From a virus: a DNA stretch of 39,585 bases. Positions 170 to 39,585 of the stretch are shown here, piece by piece. Every line of letters starts with the position of its first letter. Position 1 is the stretch's first letter. Under the pieces are notes generated by a model, which was not told the origin of the DNA, did not search any database, and was given only the letters and a program-made list of their open reading frames with translations. Where the stretch lies: the IMG/VR virus record IMGVR_UViG_3300009071_000004. The stretch is one strand, 5' to 3'. The position numbers and the translations under genes are program-made.

Positions 170-331
170 ATGATTGAAGTAACCGCAGACGAAGTAGTCC
201 AAGCATTCAAGGAACGTTACCCAACAGAGTTTGAGTTGTGTGTGCTGCTCGTACAGAACATCAAGATGCAGCAACAGTTGGCTGTTGATCCCGACACCGA
301 GGATGTAGAAGCCGAAGATACCGCTATTTAG
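170..331 (+). CDS. Hypothetical acidic 53-aa protein (MIEVTADEVVQAFKERYPTEFELC...). Not in the ORF track because it is under 60 aa.
   Basis: An ATG at 170 is preceded by taaggatttgtc (AAGGA SD). The frame is open to the TAG at 329-331. It is the first gene after the fibre gene across the circular junction. Confidence 0.5.
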   Translation: MIEVTADEVVQAFKERYPTEFELCVLLVQNIKMQQQLAVDPDTEDVEAEDTAI

Positions 332-370
332 GCGGTAGAACGCCGTCCACCTCCATATAGGAGGCTAGTT

Positions 371-802
371 ATGTCTGTGTCTGATTTCTTTGCTGCCGAG
401 AAGCCTGCGTTTGATCGCCAGCGCGACATCGCCGATTACGGCTATCAGAATGCTTTGGTCCGTAACTCTGCTCAACGGCAGTCGTTGAACGTCGAGCGCC
501 TCGATGCGACTCGACGTTTGGGTAAGCAGTTGACTGCGCGTCGGCAGCAGATCCCTGGGCAGTTCACGGGTCGTGGGTTGCTGAAGAGCGGCATTTATGG
601 CAAGGCGTTGGGCGATTTTGAGACTGCTCGTTTGCAGGCTGAGTCTGGTTTGGCTCGCGGGTTTCAGAAGCGGGGCATGGATTTGTCTCAGCAGCTTTCT
701 TCGGCTGAGATGAATCGTTTGATTCAGTTGGCTGATGTTGATTTGAATGAGGCTCAGCGTCGTACTGCGATTGCGGGCATGTTGCAGGGGGCTACGAGCT
801 GA
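371..802 (+). CDS. Putative internal virion or ejection protein, 143 aa, helical and Q/R/L-rich.
   Basis: A strong SD (ataggaggctagtt) precedes the ATG. The stop overlaps the next start (TGATG). Position is analogous to podovirus core proteins. No motif recognised. Confidence 0.6.
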   Translation: MSVSDFFAAEKPAFDRQRDIADYGYQNALVRNSAQRQSLNVERLDATRRLGKQLTARRQQIPGQFTGRGLLKSGIYGKALGDFETARLQAESGLARGFQKRGMDLSQQLSSAEMNRLIQLADVDLNEAQRRTAIAGMLQGATS

Positions 803-2169
803 TGGCGCTTGGACCATATGAGTGGGACAAAGAAAACGAAACACTTGCTGAATGGCAGGAGCGAATCGCAGATGCGTCTGCGCCAACGTCGAAGAACGGC
901 GTGCCGATACCAACCATTGAAGAATATAACCAGATGGGGCCAGATGATCTAGCGGGACTTCGGGCCGCTGGGATCACGTTGACGGATATTACGGTCGGGC
1001 CTGGTTCTCCAGAGCAAAACGGTCAGACTTTGATCAACTATGCAATGACTGGCGAAACTCCTGTTTCGTCTTACGGATCTCCAGAGGCGGGTGTAATCGC
1101 AGCCAGAGCTAAGGCCGCTTTTGCCGCTGCAGATCCATCCTCGGCGCACCCTTATGCATCGCAACGCGTACCAGGCGGACTCGGCGCCGATATTAGGGCG
1201 GCAGAAGCCGAGTACGAGCGTGCAGCGAACATGGCGCACTTCGACCAGTATTACAAGCAGGGCACCAAGGGTGGCACGGGTGTAGACACAGCTAAATTGG
1301 CGATGCAGCAGGCCGCTATCGAGGACACTCTTGCTTGGTCGATGGAACACATCGCTTCACAGTTCAAGTTGATGACTGAGGAGATGGAAAGGCAGAAGGA
1401 ACAGGGCAAGCAGGAGATGGATTCTGCCCGTCTGGATGCTCTTGATTCGTTGACGAAGATGTCTGCCGATTTGGAGTCGACTTCAAATCGCACTAATGCG
1501 ATGATGGCTAGTGCTGCTATGCGTACTGGCGGCGATATTGGTGCTGCTACGGAGGGTGCGTTGCGTCGTTTGGGTTCGACTTCTGATGTGATTTCTGATG
1601 GGGCGCGTCGTGCCATTGAGGAGGAGGGCCAGTCTGAGGTTGGTTTGGCTGCGTCTGAGGCTCAGATTCAGTCTGATTTGTCTGCCCGTTTGGCGCAGAT
1701 CACTGAGGGCCAGTTGGGTCGTTCTAGGGGGTCTGCTGAGCAGATCGCTCAGGGCGGCAAGACGGCTATGTCGGCGAGTATGGCTGCGCTGTTGGCGCAG
1801 CGGCAGGCTGATCGTTCTGGCACGGAGTTTGAGGTGAGCGAGAATGCCCGTCAGGCTGCTTTGGAGTTGGCGTTGAATCCGCCGACTCGTTCTTGGGGTG
1901 GTACTGCTGGTGGTCGGTTTGCTGGGATGGATTTGGAAAGGTCCATGTTGCAGGAGTTGGGTTACGGCGAGGCTGAGATTGCTGCGTTGTTGTCGAGCGG
2001 CCAGTATGCCGCTGTGATGGAGGATTACTTCAACGTTGGCGGCGGGTCAGACTTGTCGCCTACTAGTCAACTGTTGTTCGACACACAGACGCCTGAGGAG
2101 CTTGCTGCGATCGGAACGGACCCTGAGCATAAGTTCCAAGAAGATGCCGCTGCAGCGCTGATCCGATGA
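802..2169 (+). CDS. Putative internal virion or ejection protein, 455 aa, Ala-rich with coiled-coil character.
   Basis: Translationally coupled on both sides (TGATG upstream, ATGA downstream). Long helical A/E/Q/R-rich segments. It lies directly upstream of the giant ORF. Confidence 0.6.
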   Translation: MALGPYEWDKENETLAEWQERIADASAPTSKNGVPIPTIEEYNQMGPDDLAGLRAAGITLTDITVGPGSPEQNGQTLINYAMTGETPVSSYGSPEAGVIAARAKAAFAAADPSSAHPYASQRVPGGLGADIRAAEAEYERAANMAHFDQYYKQGTKGGTGVDTAKLAMQQAAIEDTLAWSMEHIASQFKLMTEEMERQKEQGKQEMDSARLDALDSLTKMSADLESTSNRTNAMMASAAMRTGGDIGAATEGALRRLGSTSDVISDGARRAIEEEGQSEVGLAASEAQIQSDLSARLAQITEGQLGRSRGSAEQIAQGGKTAMSASMAALLAQRQADRSGTEFEVSENARQAALELALNPPTRSWGGTAGGRFAGMDLERSMLQELGYGEAEIAALLSSGQYAAVMEDYFNVGGGSDLSPTSQLLFDTQTPEELAAIGTDPEHKFQEDAAAALIR

Positions 2170-5100
2170 GTGAAGCTTTTGATCAGGCCATTGCTGATAT
2201 AGCGGCAAAGCACAACATGTCGGCGACTGCTGTTACGCGCATTGCCAGCCGTAATCCAGCGTTTGCGAGCTTTGATCCTGATAATCCTGCGGCGTGGAAG
2301 CCTACGGACACCATTACTGACAATGTTGGTATGGGTGGCGGTTCTTTGCCGTCGACGGGCCTGCGCCCTTCGTTGTCTGGGCGGGAGCCTGGGGTCAGTG
2401 TTCTTTCTGATGAGTTGTTGGCGACGTTGCGTGAAGGGTTCTTGAAGGCGGGCGAGTCGAAAGATTTCTCGCTTGGTGGCAGCCTGTTAGACGTTGGCAC
2501 AAGGATGTTAGATATCGCGTCGATGGGGATGCGGAGCAACATTTCGCTCCTCAAAGAGGTCGGCGACTTGTTTGACGATGAAGAATCGTTTTCGCTGGGC
2601 GATTGGAAACGTCAAGCCTTCGATGAGAAAATCACGTTTGGTGACGTTCTCGACGAGTGGGCACCTGGCTTGGGTGAGATCGAAATGTTCGGCTACAAGC
2701 CGCTGGACAATATCGCTGGGTTTGTTGGCGATGTCGTGTTGGATCCGTTTACTTGGTTGACGTTGGGCACTTTGCCGTTAGCTCGCCAGGGCACTATGGG
2801 TGTCGTCAGGTTGGGTTTGAAGACAGGCGGCGGAGCGACTGACGACATTGCTCGGCAGATCTTTGGCCACGGGATCCGTGCAGCTAAAGCCGATGATCTT
2901 GCCCGTTTGACTAAAGCAGGCCAGAGTGCTGGTTTGTTGGGTGCTGACGACATCATCAAGGGCGGACTTCAGTTCAGGATCCCTTTCGGGAAGACTTTGA
3001 GTCGGCTCAGTAGCAGCCCGACCAAAGCCAAATATGTGCAGGTCTTGGGGCAGGACAACCCGCTGCTCAAGGTGCTTCCTCGTACGTGGGCGAACGCGGG
3101 GTTCCAGAAGATTCGTCGTTCGAAGTTTGGTGGCCTGTTCGGCGGCGACATGCAAACTTGGAAGAAGATCGTTCGGGATCCGACTTCGTCGATCACCGAT
3201 TGGAAAGCTGCGTTCCTAAGCATCGATGCGAACAACTTGGGCAAGGGCATCGGGAAGCAGCTCAACAACCAGTTAGAGAATGTTGCACAGTCGATTGCTC
3301 GGCGTCTTGTAGACGCAAACATCAACGGCAAGGACGCTTATAACGCTATGGGTTCTGACGTTCTCCCTGCAGGGATGGACGCTGGCTTGTGGCGAGAGTT
3401 GAAAGACTTTGGTGACATGGTTCGCGATGAGGCGAACAATGCTGTCACTGTCAACAAGATGCCTGACGCTAATGGCAATGTTGTTGTTGAGGATTGGATT
3501 AAGTACCGCGAGAATTGGCAGCCTGCAGTGCCATCCAAGGAGGTTGCTGAGGGAATTAGTGAATGGGCGCGGCAGGCTCGTCGCGGTTTGGCTGCGGACA
3601 ACACGAAGCTACAAAGCTTCGAAATGAAAGCCAAAATTGTTGCTGGCAATGACTTTATGGGCGTCCCTTTGGTCGATGCTTCTGCACACCCGTTCAAGAA
3701 AACTCCTCGTGAGCAGGCTCTTGAAATTATGGAGTCTGCGGAACAGGAGTGGGGCGGCGACATCGTTAAGTGGTTCTCGGACGACTGGTTTGAGGCTATG
3801 CCTCAACACATTTCGATGCTTTCTCGACGGGTTCAGGGCAAGTTTGCTGAGAACTATCTGATCGCTAATGGTATAGCGATCACTCGGGAGGTTGCTGATG
3901 ACAAAGCCCATTTGGCGTTGGCGACGTTCCGAAAGAAGCAGGTTCAGGTTTATAAGTGGGAACGGCATGTAGCTGATGCTGAGGCGACGCACAATCATGC
4001 TGTCGCTCAAGCTGCTGATTCCACTGCTGAACAGGTGCAGGCGGCGTTGGATGTGGCGCAGGCTAGGCGTGCCCGTTCGCAGCGTTGGGGTGTCGATCTG
4101 GATCCTCCTACTAATGGCCAGGTGTGGCGGGATGCTGGTGACGATCTGAACGCTGTTGCTGATGATTCTCGTGCAGCGTTGGACAGGTTGAATGCGGGGC
4201 ATGCTGGCGCTGTTGAAGAGCTTGAGGGTGCTGCTACGGCTAGTTTGAAGGCAGCGAATGACGCTGACATGTCGTATCACCGCATTCAGCAGGGGCTGAA
4301 TGATTTAGCTGAGACTCGTCGGGCGTTGTGGGCTGAGGGCACGGATCTCGCTAGGGCTTATGACGACAACTTTGAGGGTGCGGCTCAGGTTCTTGAACGT
4401 CTTAGCGAGTTGGATACGGAGATCCGTCAGATAGACGATGTGATATCACAGGCTCGCGCTGATTACATTTTGTCGTTGGGTGACCCTGAGGCTCCGATGG
4501 AGCTGATTAAGAAAGCTAATGCTGTTGTCGAGGGCGGCACGGCGATGTCGGCTGTCGCTAAACGGGCGATGCAGTTGACAGAGGCCATTTATCGTTCCGA
4601 TAGCTCATTTGATCGGGAAGTAGTTGCAGCGTTGAATGCTGAGCTGTCTCCTTTGCTGAAGCAGTTGGGTATGCCTAGCGGGAACGTGTCATCGTTTGGT
4701 TCGCCTGCGTTGGATCTCCACAACAAGATCAAGGGTTTGAAGACGAATATCGATGCGACTGTAGTCGCACATAGCCGAATATCTGGCACCGTTAGGGACA
4801 CGTTGGAGTGGACCCCTGAGCGGGTGCATTTCCGTGAGGCTGAAAAGCTCCGTAACGAGCTGACGGATGAACTTAACGAACTTGTCGAGTTGTTGGATGA
4901 CGAACTTGCGCCTGAGTTGTTGGCTGAGATCGAGTTGGGGATCAGGCAGCTTGGTGTTTCGGCCAAGGGCTATTTGACGTATGGCGGCGATCAGGTCGTC
5001 TGGTATCACGGGGTGAATTCGAAGTTTGATTCGATGGATTTGGGTACTCAGGTTGCTGCGGGTGACCGTGTTACTCTTGAGCTGGATTCGTTCTTGGGTG

Positions 5101-8100
5101 TTCATTCGGCTCAGAACGTCGAGTATGCGTCTTTGTATGCAGGCGAGTTTGGTGAGGCCGCTCAGGGATCCGACAGTTTGTTGGGGTTCCTAGTTCGGGC
5201 TGATAACCCTGCCGTTTATGGCGGCACCATTGCCGACATAAGTACGGCGAACAAGCTGCCTGATCCAGCAGATTGGTCGCATCGAACACGCGGTGCTGGT
5301 TTGGCTTTGATTCATTCCGACATGTTGGATTCGGGGTTTAAGAACGGCCATTACGGTTTGGAAGATTTGGAAGCCGCTGGGATCCCGCACGCTAAAGAGA
5401 TCTGGCTTTTGATGCAGGGCCGCGACGTTAACCGCAAGGTGATTTCTCGGCCTTTGTCGTATACGGAAGCTGCGATCAAGTTCGCTGATCAGAGTTCGTT
5501 GGATTCGACGACGAGAATCGTTGATGAATTGATGGATTCCCAGTTTACGAACAACTTCATGCGGACGGCGTTGAGTAACTCTGTCGATGGCGAACCCTGG
5601 GATTCTCCTGCTCTTCGGCGTCGCTTTGTTGACACGTTGCGTGGCATGGAGCAGCAGGGCGATCAGGCTATTTCCAAGTTCAAAGCCGCTCAGGCAGGTG
5701 GTCAACACTCGGGCAAACATGAGGATGAGTACATCGAGTTAATTGCGGCTTTGGAGGGTGGGTTGTCTAATCGGGTCAAGTTTGATCCAACGAAGCAGAT
5801 CGTTCCTCCTGTTGATGCGAAGCTCGGCACCTATCAGGGGATCCCGAAGGCTGATGATGCCCGTGAGTGGCCTCCTCCGAACATGTCGGTGTCGGATGCC
5901 GTCTTGGCGAATGCTGGCGGTTTCTTTGATGACTTCATTTATCCGCTGACAAATAACTCTCACTGGGCTGCGAGCGGGAGATCCATAAGTGATGTTGATG
6001 AGATCTTGCAGTCGGTTGCCCGCGACTTTAAGCAGGAGTTGAAGGGCCGCGGTCACGATTCGATCCTGTACCCGATCCGTCAGGATAAGGGTTCGTGGGG
6101 AGTTATCACTTTCGATCATGCCCAGTTGGAGATTCCGCCGCGGCTGCCTGGGACCAGCGAGTCGGGGTTCAACCGTGCGAAGCTTGGGGGTGATTTCACC
6201 GACGGGATGCAGGAAGGTGTCGCTCTCAGACAGGCGATTGAGCAGCCGCAACCCAGGGTCGTGTTGGAAGACCTTGAAGATGCTTCTGAATCATTCACGG
6301 CACCCACAAAGACAACGTCGGGGGCGGGAGATCCTGAACTCCATAGAGCTGTCGACAAGCTCGATCAAGATCTCCAAGATCTGGCCCCTTATGCCGAGAT
6401 GTCGTCGTTGAATACAGATGGCTGGGGTCGGACCGTAAGCCGTTATAGGCATTTGTTGACTGAGCAATCTGACTTGTGGGGCGAGTTGGCAAACCCTGTG
6501 GGGCGAAGGACTAAGGTCACTGGTGGCCTACGGGGCGGAGAAGTCACGTCCATATTGCCGAGGATGAACGCTATGCGTGGGCGTGCTGGTCAGCTACTCG
6601 GCCAGATGCGTAAGCAGTACAGGCGGTCTTTGAACGACCTTGGTGTCAACGACATCGATGATTTGATCGATCTGCAAGAAGTGGTCGAAGAGATCGACCT
6701 CGATCTGGTTTCGTCTTTGAAGAGCATGATCGATGGTCAGGAGAAGTTCCTTTCAGAAACGATGGAGGCTACTCAGAAGCTGCGGCGTGCTGTAGACGCC
6801 GCTAACGAGTTGGGCGCTGGGAAGGTTTATGCAACGACTTCGTCGGGGTTTGTGAAGACCGTTGATGATGCTCGTGCGTTGATGCGTACGAAGCGTATGG
6901 AGTTGATGCAGGAAAAGTTTGATGAGGCTGAGGCTTTGGGCGATGTTGGTCGCGACATGCATGGCGCTGCTGATCAGGCGAAGCGGCAGGCTGACAAGAA
7001 CCGCAAGATTGTTCGTGATCGTCGACGCAAGATTCGAAATTTGGAAGATGCCCACGATGAGGCTTCTATCAAGTTGGAGCAGGAAGAGCTTCGGCTTCGG
7101 GGCGAAGCCGATGACGCTTACAGGACTGCTGACAGGCTGGAACGTGAGCACTACGACAACGTGCAGAAGCAGTTTGGTGTCTTGCATCAGGGTGTGGTGA
7201 CTGCTGAGGCTAACGAGAAGCTGCTAGCTGCGGAGTCGTTGCGGCTACAGGCGCAGGCGAAGCAGGCTGAGGCGGATCTGATTTTCCGTCAGGGGTATCG
7301 GGACATTTTGGCTGACGAGTTTTCGTCGTTGTCGATGCCGACTCGGTTGACGATGTTGAGTAAGGCGATGGATGGTTGGGTGAACTTTGGTTCGACTCAC
7401 CAGTTGCCTGAGGATATTGCTCGGGGGTTCTCGGAGTTGGGGCAGACGATGGGGCCACGTAACGGCCCGTCGTTCTTGTTGCGTTCTGTTGACAAAGTCA
7501 ACGACTTGTTTAAGGCGTGGGCTATTGCGTCGCCTGGTTTCCATTCTCGGAACTTCATGGGTGGCACGTTCAACAATGCGTTGGCTGGCGTGTCTGTTTC
7601 CTCATATAAGCGGTTCCATAGCATGTACACGCCTGTTCGTCGGGTGATGGATGCGGGCGGCACGGTCGATGAGCAGGTCATGGCGTTGCGTAGTAGTAAA
7701 CGTGGTTTGAAACTGAAGGAGACTCCTAAGGGCACGAAGCTGCTTAATGACATGGAGTTGATGGTTCGGATGGGTGTCTTGACTGGCGGTCAGACAACGG
7801 AGCTGGGTCGAATTGTGAAGGGTGCCCGTCAGGGTGGCGCTTTGAATCCGTTCAACCCGAACAACCTTGTGGCTGGTGGGTTGCGGAAGCCGACGATGCA
7901 CGTTGAGAACTATTTGCGTGGGGCGTTGGCGTTGGACAGGTTGACCACTGGGGCGACGATTGAGCAAGCCGTGGCTGACGTGTTCAAATATCATTTCGAT
8001 TACGACAATTTGTCTGCGTTTGAGCGTGGTGTGATGCGTCGGGTGTTCCCGTTCTATACGTGGACGCGCAACAATCTGCCGTTGCAGTTGGAGATGATGG

Positions 8101-8708
8101 CTACGAACCCGAAGATCTACAATCGTGCTGGGTCTTTGAAAGCTGAGATTGAGCAAGACACGGAGGGTGAGGCGAACACGCCGAAGTGGATTGCGGAGCG
8201 GTTCAATATCCAGTTGCCGTGGACACGCAACGGGAACTCGATATTCCTCGTTCCCGATCTGCCGTTCACCGATGTCGACGAGTCGTTTAACTTGCGGCGG
8301 GTTGCTGCTCAGACTTCGCCGTTGATCAAGGTGCCTTTGGAGATGTTGGGCAAACGTGACTTGTTCTTCGATGCCGAGTATCGGGGCCGTCAGGAGCCGT
8401 TGCCTAGTGCTTGGAAGGTCATTTTGGCTCCTGCTATTCCTGCGTTGTATGCGGCGGGGATGATCGAGCATGACGAGGACGGGGTGATGACTGCCACGAA
8501 GGAACACATGCGGTGGTTTGAATCGTTTATGCCTGTGATGGCTACCACTAGGCGTTTGTTCCGCACGGAGGGCGACCCGAAGTCGGGGGAGCGTTGGCTT
8601 CAGAACATTGTGAACTGGACTTCTGGTGCGGGTATTCGGGAGACTCTCCCGAGGGATGTCGAGTTTGAGAAGTTCCGTCGCAACAACCCGTCGTTCTTCG
8701 AAAACTAG
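2166..8708 (+). CDS. Giant 2180-aa virion-associated multidomain protein, a candidate ejection or polyvalent protein.
   Basis: An uninterrupted 6.5 kb ORF, about one-sixth of the genome, with an ATGA overlap to the upstream gene. It has coiled-coil blocks (roughly aa 560-930 and 1500-1700). Two sequence islands (VVWYHGVNSKFDSMDLG...GVHSAQNVEYASLYAG and GRGHDSILYPIRQDKGSWGVITFDHAQLEI) resemble domains I recall from phage polyvalent proteins. The C-terminal ~430 aa are a distinct non-repetitive domain (PFYTWTRNNLPLQLE). Confidence 0.85.
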   Translation: MSEAFDQAIADIAAKHNMSATAVTRIASRNPAFASFDPDNPAAWKPTDTITDNVGMGGGSLPSTGLRPSLSGREPGVSVLSDELLATLREGFLKAGESKDFSLGGSLLDVGTRMLDIASMGMRSNISLLKEVGDLFDDEESFSLGDWKRQAFDEKITFGDVLDEWAPGLGEIEMFGYKPLDNIAGFVGDVVLDPFTWLTLGTLPLARQGTMGVVRLGLKTGGGATDDIARQIFGHGIRAAKADDLARLTKAGQSAGLLGADDIIKGGLQFRIPFGKTLSRLSSSPTKAKYVQVLGQDNPLLKVLPRTWANAGFQKIRRSKFGGLFGGDMQTWKKIVRDPTSSITDWKAAFLSIDANNLGKGIGKQLNNQLENVAQSIARRLVDANINGKDAYNAMGSDVLPAGMDAGLWRELKDFGDMVRDEANNAVTVNKMPDANGNVVVEDWIKYRENWQPAVPSKEVAEGISEWARQARRGLAADNTKLQSFEMKAKIVAGNDFMGVPLVDASAHPFKKTPREQALEIMESAEQEWGGDIVKWFSDDWFEAMPQHISMLSRRVQGKFAENYLIANGIAITREVADDKAHLALATFRKKQVQVYKWERHVADAEATHNHAVAQAADSTAEQVQAALDVAQARRARSQRWGVDLDPPTNGQVWRDAGDDLNAVADDSRAALDRLNAGHAGAVEELEGAATASLKAANDADMSYHRIQQGLNDLAETRRALWAEGTDLARAYDDNFEGAAQVLERLSELDTEIRQIDDVISQARADYILSLGDPEAPMELIKKANAVVEGGTAMSAVAKRAMQLTEAIYRSDSSFDREVVAALNAELSPLLKQLGMPSGNVSSFGSPALDLHNKIKGLKTNIDATVVAHSRISGTVRDTLEWTPERVHFREAEKLRNELTDELNELVELLDDELAPELLAEIELGIRQLGVSAKGYLTYGGDQVVWYHGVNSKFDSMDLGTQVAAGDRVTLELDSFLGVHSAQNVEYASLYAGEFGEAAQGSDSLLGFLVRADNPAVYGGTIADISTANKLPDPADWSHRTRGAGLALIHSDMLDSGFKNGHYGLEDLEAAGIPHAKEIWLLMQGRDVNRKVISRPLSYTEAAIKFADQSSLDSTTRIVDELMDSQFTNNFMRTALSNSVDGEPWDSPALRRRFVDTLRGMEQQGDQAISKFKAAQAGGQHSGKHEDEYIELIAALEGGLSNRVKFDPTKQIVPPVDAKLGTYQGIPKADDAREWPPPNMSVSDAVLANAGGFFDDFIYPLTNNSHWAASGRSISDVDEILQSVARDFKQELKGRGHDSILYPIRQDKGSWGVITFDHAQLEIPPRLPGTSESGFNRAKLGGDFTDGMQEGVALRQAIEQPQPRVVLEDLEDASESFTAPTKTTSGAGDPELHRAVDKLDQDLQDLAPYAEMSSLNTDGWGRTVSRYRHLLTEQSDLWGELANPVGRRTKVTGGLRGGEVTSILPRMNAMRGRAGQLLGQMRKQYRRSLNDLGVNDIDDLIDLQEVVEEIDLDLVSSLKSMIDGQEKFLSETMEATQKLRRAVDAANELGAGKVYATTSSGFVKTVDDARALMRTKRMELMQEKFDEAEALGDVGRDMHGAADQAKRQADKNRKIVRDRRRKIRNLEDAHDEASIKLEQEELRLRGEADDAYRTADRLEREHYDNVQKQFGVLHQGVVTAEANEKLLAAESLRLQAQAKQAEADLIFRQGYRDILADEFSSLSMPTRLTMLSKAMDGWVNFGSTHQLPEDIARGFSELGQTMGPRNGPSFLLRSVDKVNDLFKAWAIASPGFHSRNFMGGTFNNALAGVSVSSYKRFHSMYTPVRRVMDAGGTVDEQVMALRSSKRGLKLKETPKGTKLLNDMELMVRMGVLTGGQTTELGRIVKGARQGGALNPFNPNNLVAGGLRKPTMHVENYLRGALALDRLTTGATIEQAVADVFKYHFDYDNLSAFERGVMRRVFPFYTWTRNNLPLQLEMMATNPKIYNRAGSLKAEIEQDTEGEANTPKWIAERFNIQLPWTRNGNSIFLVPDLPFTDVDESFNLRRVAAQTSPLIKVPLEMLGKRDLFFDAEYRGRQEPLPSAWKVILAPAIPALYAAGMIEHDEDGVMTATKEHMRWFESFMPVMATTRRLFRTEGDPKSGERWLQNIVNWTSGAGIRETLPRDVEFEKFRRNNPSFFEN

Positions 8709-8727
8709 ATGCCGTCCACTATGGGGC

Positions 8728-8913
8728 ATGATGTTTCATGTTCGTAACCTGTTGGCGGCTGAGCCTGTTGCGGTTGTAGCAGCCCTACAGGCGTCGTTGG
8801 CGTTGGCTGTGCTGTTCGGTGTCGAGTTGTCGGCCGATCAGCTTGCTGGTGTGGGCGCGTGTGCTGCTGCTTGGCTAGGGCTTGTGACTCGTCGACGTGT
8901 CAGTCCCGTCTAG
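8728..8913 (+). CDS. Small hydrophobic (membrane) protein, 61 aa.
   Basis: MMFHVRNLLAAEPVAVVAALQASLALAVLFGVELSADQLAGVGACAAAWLGLV has two hydrophobic stretches. The start is chosen 20 nt after the giant ORF stop. The 3' end overlaps the convergent minus-strand gene by 39 nt. Confidence 0.4.
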   Translation: MMFHVRNLLAAEPVAVVAALQASLALAVLFGVELSADQLAGVGACAAAWLGLVTRRRVSPV

Positions 8914-9249
8914 GCAGTAGTTGAGGGTGACTAGCGCACCCATGTTCCACTGGACGGCGGCAGCGTGCAGCGTGCCTGTCTCTGAGTCTCGGGTTTCGCC
9001 TTGAGCCATCTTCATTAGGTGCCGTAGGGCGGCGTCTATGTACTCGGAGTCTGGTTTGCCTCCGAGTATCCAGTTTGGTTTGCCGTCTACGTCGGGGTAT
9101 TTCTTGCGTCCGATATGGCAGTGCCATGCGAGCGGTGACCAGTCGAACCAGCCTAGTTCTCCCAGTGGGGCTTTGTGGGCGTTGTCGCGTGCAGCGTTAC
9201 GCTGCTTCATCTTCACCGACCCATTCTTGCATTTCTGCCCAGGATTCAT
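8875..9249 (-). CDS. DUF5664 / dATP-dGTP pyrophosphohydrolase N-domain-like protein.
   Basis: The pattern KKYP...NW..GGKP.SEYIDAALRHLMKMAQGETRDSETGTLHAAAVQWNMGALV matches the DUF5664 signature as I recall it (KY..NW...YLDSALRHL...GE..EDHLAAV.WN..AL). The start is uncertain; the alternative is M14 at 9210. Confidence 0.6.
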   Translation of the reverse strand: MNPGQKCKNGSVKMKQRNAARDNAHKAPLGELGWFDWSPLAWHCHIGRKKYPDVDGKPNWILGGKPDSEYIDAALRHLMKMAQGETRDSETGTLHAAAVQWNMGALVTLNYCLDGTDTSTSHKP

Positions 9250-10889: not shown

Positions 10890-11277
10890 TTTCTTCACTC
10901 TTGCTTTCACTTATCCACAGGTGCCCTGTGGATGTGGATTCTAGTACAGATATCTGGCCATCGTCCATGTAGGCGATCCCGTTCAAAGCGTCCAACACGG
11001 CCTTCATGTAGTTGTCGATGTCGCCTCGCAGTACAGTGGGCAGCTCTGTAGGAGCAACTTCGATCCACATGCCATGCTTGTCGAAGTCGACCGTGACTTT
11101 CACTGGCCCTTCCAGAGGTTTCCGTCGACCAAACTTTGTCTTCCATGCTGCAGCTATCGCTGCTTCATGCACGAGTGTCGCTTCGGGCGTGAAGACACGC
11201 CCTCGACGACCCAGCCGTGGCCTTTGCTTAACTCTAGGCTTTATCTGTATGTAAGTCCGCATCGGTTTACGTGACAT
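10882..11277 (-). CDS. rusA: RusA-family Holliday junction resolvase.
   Basis: RGDIDNYMKAVLDALNGIAYMDDGQI matches the E. coli RusA catalytic region [27 protein letters not shown]. Start MSRKP is preceded by gaaaggctacct. Confidence 0.85.
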   Translation of the reverse strand: MSRKPMRTYIQIKPRVKQRPRLGRRGRVFTPEATLVHEAAIAAAWKTKFGRRKPLEGPVKVTVDFDKHGMWIEVAPTELPTVLRGDIDNYMKAVLDALNGIAYMDDGQISVLESTSTGHLWISESKSEEND

Positions 11278-11539
11278 AGGTAGCCTTTCGTCTGGGTTTG
11301 CGTCTGGTGTCCTTGCCCCTGAGCCTGTGTCGTTGAGCGGGGGTAGTCCCACCGTAGATCCCGCAGTCATCTAGTGGGGTTTCTTCCATCTCTTCCATGC
11401 GGGCCTGCAGGCAGTCGGCTGCTACAGGGCAGGGGGCGCACGTCGCTAGGGCTTCTCGTTTTCTGCTTGGTTCTACGCTGAAGAAAGCGAGAGTGTCTTT
11501 GCCTTGGCAGTTCGCTGAGTTTCTCCAGTCGTCACTCAT
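11267..11539 (-). CDS. whiB: WhiB-family Fe-S transcription factor.
   Basis: Four-Cys pattern C-x23-C-x2-C-x5-C (NCQG...TCAPCPVAADC), followed by GIYGGTTPAQR (the G[VI]WGG turn) and a basic tail. Confidence 0.9.
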   Translation of the reverse strand: MSDDWRNSANCQGKDTLAFFSVEPSRKREALATCAPCPVAADCLQARMEEMEETPLDDCGIYGGTTPAQRHRLRGKDTRRKPRRKATYVT

Positions 11540-11854: not shown

Positions 11855-12778
11855 TTATGCGGCGTGGCCAGATGCTTTGGAGAGCATCCTGTCTAGCTGT
11901 GGGCGTCCCTGGTCTGCTCGGGTCACCCATTTGGGTGCGTGTTGGTCGTGGGCCTCGTACAGGAACCCTTGTGCTTCTGTGAAGCTCAAGTCGCATTTGG
12001 CTAGTTCCCGAGAGAAGCTCCACAGCCATTCGGATCGGTCGTCGTTGCGGCCTACGCCTTGCGTGTACATGTGGAACGCTAGACCCGAGAGACGGTTACG
12101 TGCAGACTTGTTGCGTGTGACGGATCCTGCGCCGAAGTTCTTGGCTGTGACCAGAGCGGGTGCTTTGTACAGGGCGGCTAGAGGCTCCAGTTGCGACCCC
12201 TTGACGGTCGAGGCGGCAGCTTGGCTAGCGAAGTCTTCCATCGTGCAGTCGACAATCATGCGTCGATGCTCTGCCTCGCCTGGGTTGTTTCCTGGGTACG
12301 GCAGCCGCACGTAGTTGCCGACGGCACCGTCGGCGAGAGATGCTTGCTTCGGGTTGATCTCGCGGGTCGGTGCCTGAGCGATCTGTGCTGCTGCCAGCAG
12401 TGCGTGGCGCATCAGTTCGGCGGGCAGCCAGCCGTCAGCGAACACCCATACGTGGTAGCCCTTTGAGCGGGATCGTTCGATCCATCCTGTGATCCCGAAC
12501 TTGTCGAGAACGGTCGTGATGTTCTGGGCGTGGATCAGCGACGCTTCTTCGCCCTCGTCTACGTCGATGCAGCCCCAGCAGACAACGAACCCTGTGGGGG
12601 CTTTGACCATGGGGTAGACGCCTGCTTGTGGCCCGCCGTCTAGGTGCTGCTCTAGTTGTCCAACCCACCACCTAATTTGGGCCTCTAGCGTCTTGTGTGG
12701 GCTGCGGTCGCAGCCGCCTTTCTCGGTGCCGATCACGGCAGGGTTGCCCCCGAAGAGGGCGATAAATGCTTCTCTCAT
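11855..12778 (-). CDS. AEP-family DNA primase-polymerase (prim-pol).
   Basis: WGCIDVDEGEE (DxD metal site) and SRSKGYHVWVF (the sGxGyHvw motif) are typical of the bifunctional prim-pol N-terminal domain. It lies directly downstream of the helicase in the leftward chain. Confidence 0.7.
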   Translation of the reverse strand: MREAFIALFGGNPAVIGTEKGGCDRSPHKTLEAQIRWWVGQLEQHLDGGPQAGVYPMVKAPTGFVVCWGCIDVDEGEEASLIHAQNITTVLDKFGITGWIERSRSKGYHVWVFADGWLPAELMRHALLAAAQIAQAPTREINPKQASLADGAVGNYVRLPYPGNNPGEAEHRRMIVDCTMEDFASQAAASTVKGSQLEPLAALYKAPALVTAKNFGAGSVTRNKSARNRLSGLAFHMYTQGVGRNDDRSEWLWSFSRELAKCDLSFTEAQGFLYEAHDQHAPKWVTRADQGRPQLDRMLSKASGHAA

Positions 12779-12785
12779 GTCTTCC

Positions 12786-13892
12786 CTAGAACATCGGTCG
12801 GTTGACGATGGGGTCAGCGGTTGGCTGTACCGTTTTGATCTCGTCTTTCAGAGCTGCGAGAGCGGCAGCGTTGTGCGACGCTCGGGAGGCTGTTGGGCCT
12901 GCGCCGTCGTCGGGCGGCGGGACGTACCCGTCGCCCTCCTGCAGCGGGCGGATCGCCCCTGTCTGCGACGCTATGTGCAGGTCCACGTAGCCCGTCTTCG
13001 ACGGGGGACGCTTGTTCTTCACGACACCTACGGTGATCGTGTTCTTCTCCGCTTCACGTTCGTAGGCGTCTAACGACTCGTCTTGGCATTTGCGGAACAC
13101 TTCGACCACATAGGTGGCCTCGTTCTCGCCTCCGTAACGCATCGAATCCATGCCTCGTGCTGTGCCTCGGTCGGAGCGTTTGCCTTGATGCAAGCAGACG
13201 ATGGGGCGTTTCGCTGACTTGGCGAAGCGCTTCAGCTCCTGCACCTTCCATGTCACTCCGTCGTGGTCGCCGTCGCCTGGGATCAGCTCCAGATAGTCGA
13301 TGAAGACTCCCTGTGTAGGCGCACCCCAATACTGTTCGCATTCCATGACGGCTTTGCCCATGTCGTTGAAGTCAAGACCCTCGTCTATGACCACAAGGTT
13401 CGGGAAGTCGTCTACAGCGACTGCTCTCAGGGTGTCGATCATGTCGTTGTCGCCTGCCTTGATGGCTTGCTCTACATGTTCGGGGTTCAGTCCTCGCATG
13501 ATGGCTGCAAGCTTCATCAGTACAAGCTCGGCCATCTCGTCAGGGGTGAACAGGATGAAACGGCCGTGGGCGTTGTTGCAGATGGCTTGCATGACGAGCT
13601 GCGTTTTGCCGCTGTGTGCTCGGCCTGTGACGAAACACAGGTCGCCGTCGCCTACGCCTCGCATCATGATGTCGATGTCGCGGATGCCCCACATGAGGCG
13701 TCCGTCTATGTTCTGTAGGGCGTCAACGAGCGGGTCGACTGCGGACCCGAGGTGGCGCACGAACCTCCACTCAGGGTCGGACACGGGCGAATGAGCATCG
13801 TCTGTGTCCGACCCCGTGCCATGGGAGGTGGTCTGTTGCGCAGCTATCGCTGCTTCGATTTGGGCGTCGTCAAGGATATGCGGCATTGCCAC
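12786..13892 (-). CDS. DnaB-like replicative helicase (RecA-type C-terminal domain).
   Basis: Walker A GRAHSGKTQLVM, Walker B-like VFIDYLELI, CLHQGKR, and a C-terminal linker. It is adjacent to the prim-pol. Confidence 0.8.
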   Translation of the reverse strand: MAMPHILDDAQIEAAIAAQQTTSHGTGSDTDDAHSPVSDPEWRFVRHLGSAVDPLVDALQNIDGRLMWGIRDIDIMMRGVGDGDLCFVTGRAHSGKTQLVMQAICNNAHGRFILFTPDEMAELVLMKLAAIMRGLNPEHVEQAIKAGDNDMIDTLRAVAVDDFPNLVVIDEGLDFNDMGKAVMECEQYWGAPTQGVFIDYLELIPGDGDHDGVTWKVQELKRFAKSAKRPIVCLHQGKRSDRGTARGMDSMRYGGENEATYVVEVFRKCQDESLDAYEREAEKNTITVGVVKNKRPPSKTGYVDLHIASQTGAIRPLQEGDGYVPPPDDGAGPTASRASHNAAALAALKDEIKTVQPTADPIVNRPMF

Positions 13893-34013: not shown

Positions 34014-35408
34014 ATGGTTGCAAACGTAGTTGTCCCAAATACTTTCGTCGCTGCGTCCGATGCGATTGCCGCTGAGGTAAACGCAAACTTTGTCGCGCTT
34101 CGTGACCACATCAACAACTACATGGTTTCTAACGACGGTGTAGTTGCTATAGCTGGCACTCAGACTTTGAACAATGTGACGGTTACTGGCGATCTGACGT
34201 TGACTGGCAACCTTGTGGCTAATGCCACGATCAAGGGCGATGTTGTTGATACTGGCGGTTCAACTGTCATTTTGGATAACACTGCGGGTGCTGCTTGGTT
34301 CCGTGGCGATGTCAAGGACGCTAGTGGCACAGTAATTGTGGATGTTTCAGCGGCCACGTTCGCTGGCAACGCCACTACTGCGACTACTGCGACAACTACG
34401 TCTGGTAACGCTGCGACAGCGACGCTTGCTACTACTGCTACAAACCTGTTGAGCGGGACCAGTAAACCTGGGAACGGCTCGGCTGGTGCCCCTGGACATT
34501 CATTTAGCGGCGATGCGACCACGGGCATGTATCTGGTAACGACCGATCAGGTTGGGTTCTCAACTAACGGCACTCTGAGAGGCAGGTTCTGGTCTGGCGG
34601 TCTGTTGATGGGCAGTAGTGCTCTCGATGGTGCGGCACAGATACGGGTCGAGGTGGGGACAGCGGCACTCCCTAACTACACTTTCTATAACGATCGCGAT
34701 ACGGGCATGTACCGTTCCTCTGCTAACGTCCTCGGGTTCTCGACCGCAGGAGCGTTGCGTCTCCATATTGATTCGGCTGGGGCTTTGTTGCATCAGTCTG
34801 GGGTGGATAACGCAATTTTCTACACGGGCAATATCGCCTGCAACTATGCCAGCGGCGCTGAGGCGACCATCCATCATTACAACCGCCGCGCTTGGGGCAA
34901 CGAATATGGCCTGAAGATGTATGCGGCTGGCGATACTGATGTGAACTGTGCTTGGGGCAGAACCCTCTGGTTCAAAACAGATGCTTACATTCGGGCGTCT
35001 ATCCAGAATGACGGGTTTCGTCTCAATTCGTTTCCCGTTATTTCTGGCTGGAATAGCGTTCGTCGTCGTACATCCGATTTTTTGTGCGGCTACGACGGGT
35101 CGTCGTTGCGTTACAAAGACAACGTTGTAGACGCTGACGAAACATGGCGTTCGGTTTACAATCTGCGTCCTGTTGACTTCGATTGGAACAACGAAATACA
35201 TAGTGACGATGACGGCGAACGCCACGATTACGGTCTGATCGCTGAGGAAACGGCGATCACCATGCCAAGCGTCGTTACGTCCCGTGTCGTTGAAGGGCAG
35301 GGTGACTTGCCTGTACCAGACGGCATCCAGTATGAGAAACTATCTGTTTATCTGATTCCTTTGGTGCAGGATTTGAACGCTCGTTTAGAGGCGCTTGAGG
35401 CTGTCTGA
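34014..35408 (+). CDS. Tail fibre or spike with a C-terminal intramolecular chaperone (peptidase S74-like) domain.
   Basis: The C-terminus SSLRYKDNVVDADETWRSVYNLRPVDFDWNNE...DYGLIAEE...IQYEKLSVYLIPLVQDLNARLEALEA fits the S74 autoproteolytic chaperone pattern. An ATTATTATTTSGNAATATLATTAT low-complexity tract is also present. Confidence 0.7.
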   Translation: MVANVVVPNTFVAASDAIAAEVNANFVALRDHINNYMVSNDGVVAIAGTQTLNNVTVTGDLTLTGNLVANATIKGDVVDTGGSTVILDNTAGAAWFRGDVKDASGTVIVDVSAATFAGNATTATTATTTSGNAATATLATTATNLLSGTSKPGNGSAGAPGHSFSGDATTGMYLVTTDQVGFSTNGTLRGRFWSGGLLMGSSALDGAAQIRVEVGTAALPNYTFYNDRDTGMYRSSANVLGFSTAGALRLHIDSAGALLHQSGVDNAIFYTGNIACNYASGAEATIHHYNRRAWGNEYGLKMYAAGDTDVNCAWGRTLWFKTDAYIRASIQNDGFRLNSFPVISGWNSVRRRTSDFLCGYDGSSLRYKDNVVDADETWRSVYNLRPVDFDWNNEIHSDDDGERHDYGLIAEETAITMPSVVTSRVVEGQGDLPVPDGIQYEKLSVYLIPLVQDLNARLEALEAV

Positions 35409-36277
35409 TGCTTAACCGTCAAGCGTTTGCGGCGCTAATCGACTACCAGCGCACCGACTGGGACGTGAACGAGGTTCCTCGTTTATCGAACCGTTCATGG
35501 AACGACATCCAGGGCATCGAGATCCACCACACGGGCGCAGTTGGGCCTAAGAGCATGACGTTTGCCGACATGCAATCTTGGTTGCTGTCGGTGGAGAGGT
35601 ACCACGAGCTGACAAAGGGCTGGAGCGACCTGTTCTACAACGTGTTTGTGGACGCTGAGGGTCGCGTGTGGGCTGGTCGGCCGACGCTGGCGTCGTCGCA
35701 ATCAAGTCTGCATAACTGGTTGACGGTTCATGTGCCTGGAAACAACGCTGTGTTGACCGACGTTCAGAAAGCAAAGCTGTCGGAGTTGGCGGACGCTGTT
35801 GGTGGTCGCAAAGCGATCCGTGGTCACGGTGAGCGTTCAGCTACGGCGTGCCCTGGTTCTAATGCGATGGCGTTCATCAACGAGTGTCGTGCCTCTGTTG
35901 GGGCCGTGCCGTATCCTGGGAGTTACGTCCGTCGAGATTCGACTGACACTGCTGCGGTCAAGCTGGTTCAGGCTGTCGTTGGGACAGTGATTGACGGGGC
36001 GTTTGGTCCGAACACTGAGGCGGCTGTGAAGAGTTGGCAGACGGCGCAGGGTTTGGTCGCTGACGGGATCGTTGGTCCTGCGACATGGGCCATCATGTTC
36101 CCGCCACCGCCACCAGCACCTAAGCCAGCACCAGCACCAGCACCTAAGCCTGTGCCAGAGCCTGAGCCAGAGCCTGTGCCAGAACCCAGCGATGTCGTCC
36201 CTGACAAGGCCATCGGCAAGTTGATACGTCGCCTAGTTGAGTGGCTTATGAGTATCGTCAAGGACGGGGATAGATGA
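35408..36277 (+). CDS. Endolysin: N-acetylmuramoyl-L-alanine amidase (amidase_2/PGRP) plus a PG_binding_1 domain and a Pro-rich tail.
   Basis: IEIHHTG, WSDLFYNVFVDAEGRVWAGR and GHGERSATACPG are Zn-amidase motifs. VKLVQAVVGTVIDGAFGPNTEAAVKSWQTAQGLVADGIVGPATW is the PG-binding repeat. A (PAPK/PEPE) linker follows. Confidence 0.9.
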   Translation: MLNRQAFAALIDYQRTDWDVNEVPRLSNRSWNDIQGIEIHHTGAVGPKSMTFADMQSWLLSVERYHELTKGWSDLFYNVFVDAEGRVWAGRPTLASSQSSLHNWLTVHVPGNNAVLTDVQKAKLSELADAVGGRKAIRGHGERSATACPGSNAMAFINECRASVGAVPYPGSYVRRDSTDTAAVKLVQAVVGTVIDGAFGPNTEAAVKSWQTAQGLVADGIVGPATWAIMFPPPPPAPKPAPAPAPKPVPEPEPEPVPEPSDVVPDKAIGKLIRRLVEWLMSIVKDGDR

Positions 36278-39554: not shown

Positions 39555-39585
39555 CATCTCTGATCCGATTCCTAATCGAGCCGAA
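39463..39585. repeat. Terminal direct repeat, copy B (identical to 1..123).
   Basis: An exact 123-nt match to the start of the window. Confidence 0.95.

Follow-up and report, generated by a model that had tools for sequence, protein, structure and literature searches.

The giant gene of a small podovirus: a predicted gp26-like ejection protein with a candidate cargo domain

What kind of protein is encoded by a single gene that occupies about one-sixth of a small phage genome? The question is raised by the IMG/VR virus record IMGVR_UViG_3300009071_000004, a stretch of 39,585 nucleotides (hereafter the window) in which the last gene of the late operon encodes a protein of 2180 amino acids (aa). 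Searched whole, this protein has no matches in Pfam, PHROGs, or PDB sequences, and searches with tiles are likewise empty. Its C-terminal domain is, as judged from profile alignments and predicted structures, homologous to gp26, a capsid-internal pre-ejectosome protein of cyanopodophage A4 (Anabaena phage A-4L). The product of the giant gene is probably an ejection (pre-ejectosome) protein, internal to the capsid of a small podovirus, that belongs to the polyvalent class and in which a gp26-like chassis would carry a cargo module.

The uninterrupted open reading frame (ORF) of 2180 codons proposed by the first-pass annotation at 2166-8708 is reproduced exactly by the ORF listing (plus strand, ATG start), and all of the motif strings quoted for it are present in the translation: WYHG...GVHSAQNVEYASLYAG at residues ~946-996, GHDSILYPIRQDKGSWGVITFDHAQLEI at 1296-1323, FHSRNF at 1792, and PFYTWTRNNLPLQLE at 1962. 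The two ends of the window are identical over 123 nucleotides (nt; bases 1-123 equal 39463-39585), which shows that it is a complete genome, assembled as a circle of ~39,462 bp. The 6543 nt of the gene therefore amount to 16.6 % of ~39.46 kb, in line with the claimed one-sixth. A 2180-codon open frame at 54-56 % GC cannot be a chance product. At least 16 contigs of independent Logan, JGI, and ENA samples encode exactly this protein, with gene order unchanged in all of them, and 16 full-length homologues share 34-88 % identity with it; the giant ORF is a real, conserved gene. The protein has no cysteines, a net charge of about -58, and no transmembrane-grade hydrophobic segment (KD19 maximum 1.49), and no intrinsic terminator was found downstream of the stop codon. 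Against 50,697 phage records, tblastn returns one partial match with the protein and three matches with the family consensus. A scan of GTDB genomes found no relatives, and a homologous-protein search with the C-domain profile gave just 11 short matches.

The 16 homologues are conserved in three blocks, as had been proposed, at residues ~75-585, ~930-1325, and ~1745-2180, the last being the strongest. The resulting anatomy is as follows (residue numbers are those of the giant protein).

2166..8708, plus strand: giant gene, putative gp26-like ejection/polyvalent protein; ATG start, 2180 aa; final gene of the late operon
2388..3920, plus strand: N-terminal conserved domain, aa ~75-585; conservation peak at aa 161-200 (WAPGLGEIEMFGYKPLDNIAGFVGDVVLDPFTWLTLGT)
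3921..4877, plus strand: linker 1, aa ~586-904; poorly conserved, helix-prone; short heptad-like stretch, aa 726-771
4953..5303, plus strand: central domain, N-terminal half of the split beta core, aa ~930-1046; contains invariant residues and aligns to the prototype
5304..6035, plus strand: helical-bundle insertion in the central domain, aa ~1047-1290; confident AlphaFold2 (AF2) helices
6036..6140, plus strand: central domain, C-terminal half of the split beta core, aa ~1291-1325; GHDSILY...SWGVITF
6141..7397, plus strand: linker 2, aa ~1326-1744; Pro/Gly-rich, then helix-prone
7398..8705, plus strand: C-terminal domain, aa 1745-2180; gp26-like, family-defining module

The gp26-like domains and the family that shares them

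The C-terminal domain of ~430 residues, which the first-pass annotation had been unable to place, carries the motifs SPGFHSRNF, VENYLRG, YHFDYxxLSxFER, PFYTWTRNNLPLQLE, and VPDLPF. Used in an exhaustive HMMER search, its profile recovers 16,276 representative clusters at E<=1e-3, of which 6,702 also pass E<=1e-30; proteins in the top 150 matches are 400 to 3,600 aa long. Against PDB sequences, a first profile of 13 sequences gave noise, while a deeper profile of 26 sequences returned one solved chain, 9k3a_A (E 0.004), which is gp26 (1114 aa). This match was weak and non-collinear and was therefore tested further.

The entry 9K3A is the pre-ejectosome of cyanopodophage A4, in which gp26 was placed by cryo-EM and mass spectrometry (Hou et al. 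2025, PMC12002296). The complex is a pentameric cylinder inside the capsid that is seated on the portal and binds the first turn of the packaged DNA; gp26 and gp27 together make up its outer layer (PMC12002296). When a gp26-family alignment built from A-4L, Pf-WMP4, Lbo240-yong1, PP, and CHP58 is compared with the C-domain profile, the profile-profile probability is 98.6 % (E 9.4e-16) over 404 collinear columns. A second hhalign run gives 98.0 % (E 2e-13), with 0.2 % for the central domain as a control. The region matched joins the C-terminal ~435 aa of the giant protein to the C-terminal ~550 aa of gp26. Out of six A4 proteins compared, only gp26 scores positively, and the tiles of the giant protein yield P > 0.1 against each of gp25, gp27, gp28, and gp29. 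The possibility that the giant protein is a fusion of A4 gp27 and gp26 was rejected, as no tile matches gp27. Short family members match phrog_19395, the PHROG of the gp26 family (E 1e-8 to 6e-5).

The AF2 model of the C-domain (pLDDT 85, pTM 0.80) has 32 Foldseek matches in BFVD at E<=1e-3, including the predicted structure of A-4L gp26 (E 8.1e-5, probability 1.0). The best matches are C-terminal segments of UniProt entries named "Large polyvalent protein associated domain-containing" (LPD), and the top matches span E 1.8e-17 to 1e-3 with TM scores up to 0.76. Other matched phage proteins bear the names "ART-PolyVal-like", "Zeta toxin", "LT_GEWL", "Helicase/UvrB", and "methylase". The giant protein therefore probably belongs to the phage polyvalent class of Iyer et al. 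2017, and the label "polyvalent-protein-like" proposed from the sequence was right, both in these structural matches and in the interchangeable enzyme modules of the relatives. Of note, the C-domain model also shows a weak BFVD match (E 0.05) to the C-terminal segment of the virion RNA polymerase (vRNAP) of the N4-like Vibrio phage phi 1 (A0A0B5H2N7_3).

Architecture was assessed in a set of 178 family proteins. In 155/175 proteins, no more than 40 aa follow the C-domain, and the N-domain is detected in 114/170, starting near residue 70 in all but seven of these (107/114). The stretch between the two domains, referred to here as the slot, ranges from 4 to 2,463 aa (median 847) and measures 1,160 aa in the giant protein. 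The giant protein and its distant relatives have only the N- and C-domains in common. In 14 short members (<=1,350 aa), the N-region aligns to the N-terminal half of gp26 (hhalign 92.3 %, E 5.4e-7, 138 columns); thus, gp26 looks like a minimal family member with a nearly empty slot. The part of the N-domain linked to gp26 in this way is its second half, and a 48-sequence N profile reaches the N-terminal half of gp26 at P 0.003. Short members also match phrog_36598, a PHROG without an assigned function. Neither the N- nor the C-domain matches Pfam, including the LPD models, in these scans. Among Pfam modules found in relatives, DUF6884 maps inside the slot, NUDIX and GNAT occur in long members, and in P0022 an SNase lies after the C-domain.

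The giant protein compares with A4 gp26 in its homologous C-domain (98 %, ~405 columns), in its all-alpha character, possibly in the second half of its N-domain, which is linked via intermediates, and in its setting, as A4 is a podovirus of ~40 kb whose late-operon gp26 gene lies downstream of the nozzle and other internal proteins. However, there are several differences between the two. A4 gp26 has essentially no slot, whereas ~1,160 aa are inserted in the giant protein, and identity between them is just ~12-17 %. A4 has gp27, gp28, and gp29, which include lytic transglycosylase and M23 domains, while the phage of the window is without detectable homologues. A disulfide joins gp27 to gp26 in A4, in contrast to the cysteine-free giant protein.

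The first-pass annotation had placed the gene at the position of ejection proteins, and this is borne out by the homology to gp26 and by gene order. It closes the late operon here, as do its counterparts in L010, L011, L012, L018, and the cultured Cellulosimicrobium phage DS1; the gp26 homologues of Pf-WMP4 and Lbo240-yong1 are likewise last, and that of A-4L is near-last. The similarity is, moreover, not confined to coiled-coil or tape-measure proteins, an outcome that would have spoken against the original proposal. In L012, a separate 662-aa protein with an ADPrib_exo_Tox domain, an ADP-ribosyltransferase (ART) of the R-S-E type, is encoded in the late operon two genes upstream of the chassis protein (6970-8958), a sign that ARTs recur in the neighborhood of chassis genes.

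As in the phage-type polyvalent proteins (PMC5512222), the giant protein is a very large late-gene product predicted to be packaged and injected, and, at the family level, interchangeable enzymatic modules are mounted on a conserved framework. In contrast to them, no Pfam LPD or ART-PolyVal model matches the giant protein at threshold, and it contains one candidate enzymatic module, itself sub-threshold, compared to the 2-15 that define the class (PMC5512222).

The linkers that flank the central domain had been described as long coiled coils. This holds in part: residues ~560-900 and ~1500-1700 are helix-prone (rich in A/E/R/L/Q/K and poor in Pro/Gly), while 1320-1500 is Pro/Gly-rich. In linker 1, A/E/R/L/Q/K account for 43-53 % and Pro/Gly for 8-9 % of residues. 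In linker 2, the poorly conserved Pro/Gly-rich part (1326-1500) precedes the helix-prone one (1500-1700). A crude heptad score exceeds the 99th percentile of shuffled sequences only at 726-771 and 1601-1629.

The central domain

The ARTs of polyvalent proteins are defined by a histidine in strand 1, a tyrosine in strand 2, and an aspartate in strand 5 (PMC5512222). The prototype given there, and used here for comparison, is the domain in the vRNAP of Roseovarius Plymouth podovirus 1 (RPP1), which is matched by Pfam ART-PolyVal at E 1e-8. In the giant protein, the N-terminal half of the split core harbors WYHG (His948), LGVHSA (His980), a helix with YA, and NP..YGG, and the C-terminal half harbors GHDSILY (Asp1298) and SWGVITF (Trp1311). 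In the 16 homologues, ~25 residues of the split core are invariant, including His948, which aligns with the YHG of the prototype, His980, Asp1298, and Trp1311; in the C-terminal half, G1296, D1298, S1299, I1300, Y1302, G1309, and W1311 are all invariant. The equivalent of Asp1298 is retained in all distant relatives inspected and aligns with the GYDG of the prototype in an alignment of moderate significance. On sequence grounds, this pattern of invariance would suit an active site better than a spacer.

The two core halves recur in distant relatives with a much shorter spacer between them; thus, the ~250-aa helical bundle is an insertion into a split beta core. In P0012 and P0014 (aa ~1085-1500), a further segment of ~250-400 aa is nested within this insertion. 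When the bundle is excised from the query and the remaining core is aligned by hhalign to a 3-sequence alignment of the prototype, P is 0.002, improving to 3e-4 (local) and 2.6e-5 (global) as family members are added, at 40-50 % probability. The pairings are collinear (YHG with YHG, G-x-H-x-A with G-x-F-x-T, NP with NP, GYDS with GYDG), and control alignments of the N and C tiles to the prototype give P 0.4-0.5. Pfam ART-PolyVal detects one of 12 subfamily members below threshold (E 0.26) and two compact relatives at E 0.0027 and 0.033 (18.9 and 15.4 bits), in which the GYD half corresponds to positions 76-133 of the 140-position profile. Strands are predicted in the AF2 tile at positions 41-44, 76-78, 103-106, and 111-113, with low pLDDT.

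The central domain resembles ART-PolyVal (PF18760; Tox-ART-HYD2 clade), as represented by the RPP1 prototype, in a collinear chain of motifs with invariant histidine and aspartate: a hydrophobic-x-[WY]HG motif; G-x-aromatic/His-x-[STA], then a helix with YA at its end; NP; G[YH]D[GS][IV]; and a final hydrophobic strand. It departs from ART-PolyVal in scores that are all sub-threshold, in a histidine that takes the place of the strand-2 tyrosine, in the ~250-aa helical bundle before the aspartate strand, and in an invariant tryptophan near the last strand.

Other searches with or for this domain were negative. A central-domain profile against PDB sequences returned designed helical repeats only, which are noise; no bridging canonical ART-PolyVal domain occurs among the 178 family proteins; and a homologous-protein search with the RPP1 ART domain returned nothing. 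Motif scans of the giant protein for DxDGD, HExxH, and Walker A found none, which leaves RNA-polymerase, zincin, and P-loop functions without their signatures. The lytic transglycosylase or peptidase domain considered at the outset is not detectable in it by Pfam.

Neighboring genes and host

The late operon is on the plus strand and spans 24872 to 8708 through the assembly junction. It begins with the small terminase, large terminase, portal, scaffold, and major capsid protein, continues with an SU10-type adaptor, a 567-aa nozzle-like protein, and a fiber protein with an S74 chaperone domain, and ends with an amidase with PG_binding_1, a 999-aa collagen-repeat fiber, ORFs of 53, 143, and 455 aa, and the giant gene. 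The collagen-repeat ORF (36555-39554) terminates within the duplicated 123-nt stretch. Two genes are coupled to the giant gene:

371..802, plus strand: 143-aa protein; TGATG overlap with the 455-aa gene
802..2169, plus strand: 455-aa protein; ATGA overlap with the giant gene

The overlaps lie at 800-804 (TGATG) and 2166-2169 (ATGA). Four translationally coupled genes (170-8708) had been counted, but the 53-aa ORF at 170-331 sits 39 nt upstream of the trio, and the coupled genes are therefore three. In L006-L009 and L018, too, the 143-aa gene precedes the giant gene, and its product is homologous (E 1.3e-8) to a 168-aa protein at the same position in the distant phage L011; a syntenic gene of 418 aa occupies the position of the 455-aa gene in L018. 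No family match in Pfam or PHROGs was found for the 455-aa protein, and neither coupled protein has a detectable relation to A4 gp25 or gp27-29. Their gene position makes both of them probable co-packaged internal proteins.

The amidase with PG_binding_1 (35408-36277, plus strand) is endolysin-like and lies between two tail-fiber genes rather than in a lysis cassette. One possibility is that this enzyme is a wall hydrolase associated with the virion and makes up for the lack of one among the ejection proteins.

A divergent early module encodes a MazZ-like dGTP diphosphohydrolase domain, a weak sigma-region-4 protein, RusA, WhiB, an AEP primase-polymerase, DnaB, a PD-(D/E)XK nuclease, and DUF932. 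The first of these (8875-9249, minus strand) matches the N-terminal domain of dATP/dGTP diphosphohydrolases (PF18909, MazZ-like, E 2.6e-16). A MazZ-type enzyme accompanies the biosynthesis of 2-aminoadenine (Z-base) genomes in some phages; no PurZ-like gene was seen among the scanned ORFs of the window. The replication genes (11855-13892, minus strand) comprise an AEP-TOTE-type primase-polymerase and a DnaB-like helicase and lack a DNA polymerase of family A or B, and the module of RusA, AEP, DnaB, PD-(D/E)XK, and DUF932 recurs in the distant relatives L011 and L018. The statement that the genome encodes no recognizable RNA or DNA polymerase is therefore not quite right: no RNA polymerase (RNAP) is encoded, yet the primase-polymerase and DnaB are present. 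An injected polymerase, which the missing enzymes had been taken to call for, finds no support in a genome that encodes a primase-polymerase, DnaB, WhiB, and a weak sigma-like protein.

The WhiB-family transcription factor gene (11267-11539, minus strand, Pfam E 6.4e-15) has a counterpart in relative L018. The giant-protein family has a sequence match in a 1783-aa protein of Cellulosimicrobium phage DS1, and the C-domain has structural matches in proteins of Microbacterium phage Shocker and Arthrobacter phage GurgleFerb. Together, these features suggest an actinobacterial host, in contrast to the cyanobacterial host of A4. Giant virion-associated proteins of >4,400 aa are known from the Microbacterium cluster EK and Burro podoviruses, and the Burro protein, a virion-associated band of ~250 kDa, is not N4-RNAP-like (Jacobs-Sera et al. 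2020, PMC7302621). By description, these actinophage podoviruses share with the phage of the window a single gene that takes a large fraction of the genome.

Proposed function and alternatives

The giant protein would be functionally analogous to gp14, gp15, and gp16 of T7 and to gp7, gp16, and gp20 of P22, capsid-internal proteins that are ejected via a short tail. No sequence or fold relationship to the ejection proteins of T7, P22, or N4 was detected. The vRNAP of N4 illustrates that a giant enzyme is able to travel as ejection cargo. By the precedents of A4, T7, P22, and N4, a few copies of the giant protein would assemble onto the procapsid portal together with the coupled 143-aa and 455-aa products, and the phage genome would be spooled around the portal-mounted copies. 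On adsorption, the ejection proteins would exit via the tail ahead of, or together with, the DNA. The N- and C-domains may serve packaging, ejection, conduit, or DNA-end functions, while the helix-prone, flexible linkers would let the central module ride as passenger cargo. With moderate support, this cargo may be a divergent ART-PolyVal-like domain, with His948 in strand 1, His980 in place of the strand-2 tyrosine, and Asp1298, split by the ~250-aa helical bundle. Modification of a host target by this domain early in infection would serve takeover or anti-defense.

Several observations weigh against this reading. With respect to the chassis, no homologues of A4 gp27, gp28, or gp29 are detectable in the giant protein or in the two proteins coupled to it, and no cell-wall hydrolase domain was found in any of the three; thus, the ejection complex cannot be a copy of that of A4. 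The N tile of the giant protein's own subfamily does not align significantly with gp26 (P 0.13), and the N-domain link consequently rests on intermediates. In the PDB, the C-domain model has a best Foldseek E of 0.5, and deposited gp26 (9k3a/9k2v) is not recovered. The discrepancy with BFVD may reflect an in-capsid conformation of gp26 that differs from the predicted ground state. With respect to the cargo, Pfam ART-PolyVal (PF18760) does not match the giant protein at E<=0.1, and the best score, obtained in relatives only, is 18.9 bits against a gathering cut-off of 31.2 bits. The position of the strand-2 tyrosine holds the invariant His980 (LG-x-H-x-A), while the three N4-like prototypes have phenylalanine, and the counterpart of the prototype glutamate preceding the last strand is not conserved. 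The beta core is modeled with pLDDT < 50, though its predicted order of strands and helices fits an ART fold, and Foldseek of the central-domain model against the PDB returns helical noise only. The ART-like reading that the first-pass annotation gave to the central islands is moderately supported, by the collinear prototype alignment and the sub-threshold Pfam matches in relatives. An ART-PolyVal-like fold is somewhat favored. That the domain is also catalytically active is possible but less likely than not.

The giant protein may instead be purely structural, with a central domain that has degenerated into a non-catalytic relic or has an unrelated fold. The linkers and central domain might then add length or a DNA- or envelope-binding surface, perhaps for a thick actinobacterial wall. 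This explanation is unlikely, yet it accommodates an ART similarity that is below threshold everywhere, the missing canonical strand-2 tyrosine, the loss of the strand-1 histidine in some distant relatives (P0096, P0158), the lack of a structural match for the central domain, and the structural, DNA-binding role of A4 gp26 and gp27 (PMC12002296). It does not readily explain why ~25 split-core residues are invariant across homologues that are only 34-88 % identical, why the aspartate is present in all distant relatives inspected, or why other family members carry bona fide enzyme domains.

Database labels suggest two other identities, both very improbable: an external tail fiber or host-specificity protein, from RefSeq and phrog_19395, and an SMC-like "chromosome segregation" protein, from MW202803.1. 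Apart from these labels, only the position of the giant gene after the fiber genes speaks for them. In A4, cryo-EM puts gp26 inside the capsid, and the fiber is gp24 (PMC12002296); the window, moreover, has fiber proteins of its own, with collagen repeats and S74 chaperone domains. The SMC label arises from helical low complexity, as full-length profiles match TolA, keratin, and SMC only via the linkers, and a full-length profile of short members against the PDB is swamped by the same proteins. Extremely unlikely is a virion-packaged RNA polymerase, N4- or crAss-like, that would transcribe early genes after injection. The size of the protein, its gene position, the lack of an encoded RNAP, and the weak Foldseek match of the C-domain to the N4-like vRNAP segment are compatible with such an enzyme. 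However, DxDGD is absent, matches of the [YF]xDD type are not conserved, no palm-type motif is conserved, and Pfam vRNAP_dom does not match, compared to 1e-46 for the RPP1 control. WhiB and the weak sigma-region-4-like protein suggest instead that host RNAP is redirected. Alignment by hhalign to the RPP1 vRNAP gives P > 0.15, and the related idea that N4-type vRNAPs share this chassis has no sequence support from this comparison.

The preferred reading, a gp26-like ejection protein with a cargo module, has consequences for annotation. RefSeq and phrog_19395 label gp26 homologues as "tail fiber; host specificity" (A-4L gp26 is L013 4767-8111), and MW202803.1 annotates a relative of the giant protein as "chromosome segregation". 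These are propagated misannotations. In A-4L gp27 (L013 8117-13270), residues 1543-1715 match phrog_33290, "ParB-like partition nuclease" (E 1e-9). As such domains are typical of polyvalent proteins, gp27, too, may be an ejection protein that bears cargo.

Giant ejection proteins are already known, and so are polyvalent proteins. What is new is that the C-domain defines a very large unnamed family to which Pfam and PDB-sequence search gave no match, nor did PHROGs for the giant protein itself. A 2180-aa "hypothetical" protein and a C-domain family of 16,276 clusters are now placed, and the family is tied to a protein that cryo-EM has located within the virion. For polyvalent effectors, whose injection was predicted in 2017, this suggests a concrete structural route, as passengers between two gp26-like domains. 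More tentatively, and with real doubt, the N- and C-domains could be a general carrier by which podophages, and perhaps other tailed phages, inject effectors, with a His-His-Asp ART variant bearing a helical bundle as the example in this marine actinophage. A mining rule for injected phage effectors in metagenomes follows from the architecture, namely to inspect what lies between the N and C chassis domains, and a candidate atypical ART is flagged.

Ejection-protein machinery has mostly been studied in phages of Gram-negative hosts, and the giant gene is a hint that it also operates in actinobacterial podophages. If the general-carrier proposal is correct, a family of >16,000 clusters would be the main delivery vehicle of phage polyvalent proteins, and a previously undescribed His-His-Asp ART variant would modify a host target at DNA entry. 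There would also be a case of an ejectosome-type system that works on the envelope of a Gram-positive (actinobacterial) host and lacks the usual wall-degrading partners.

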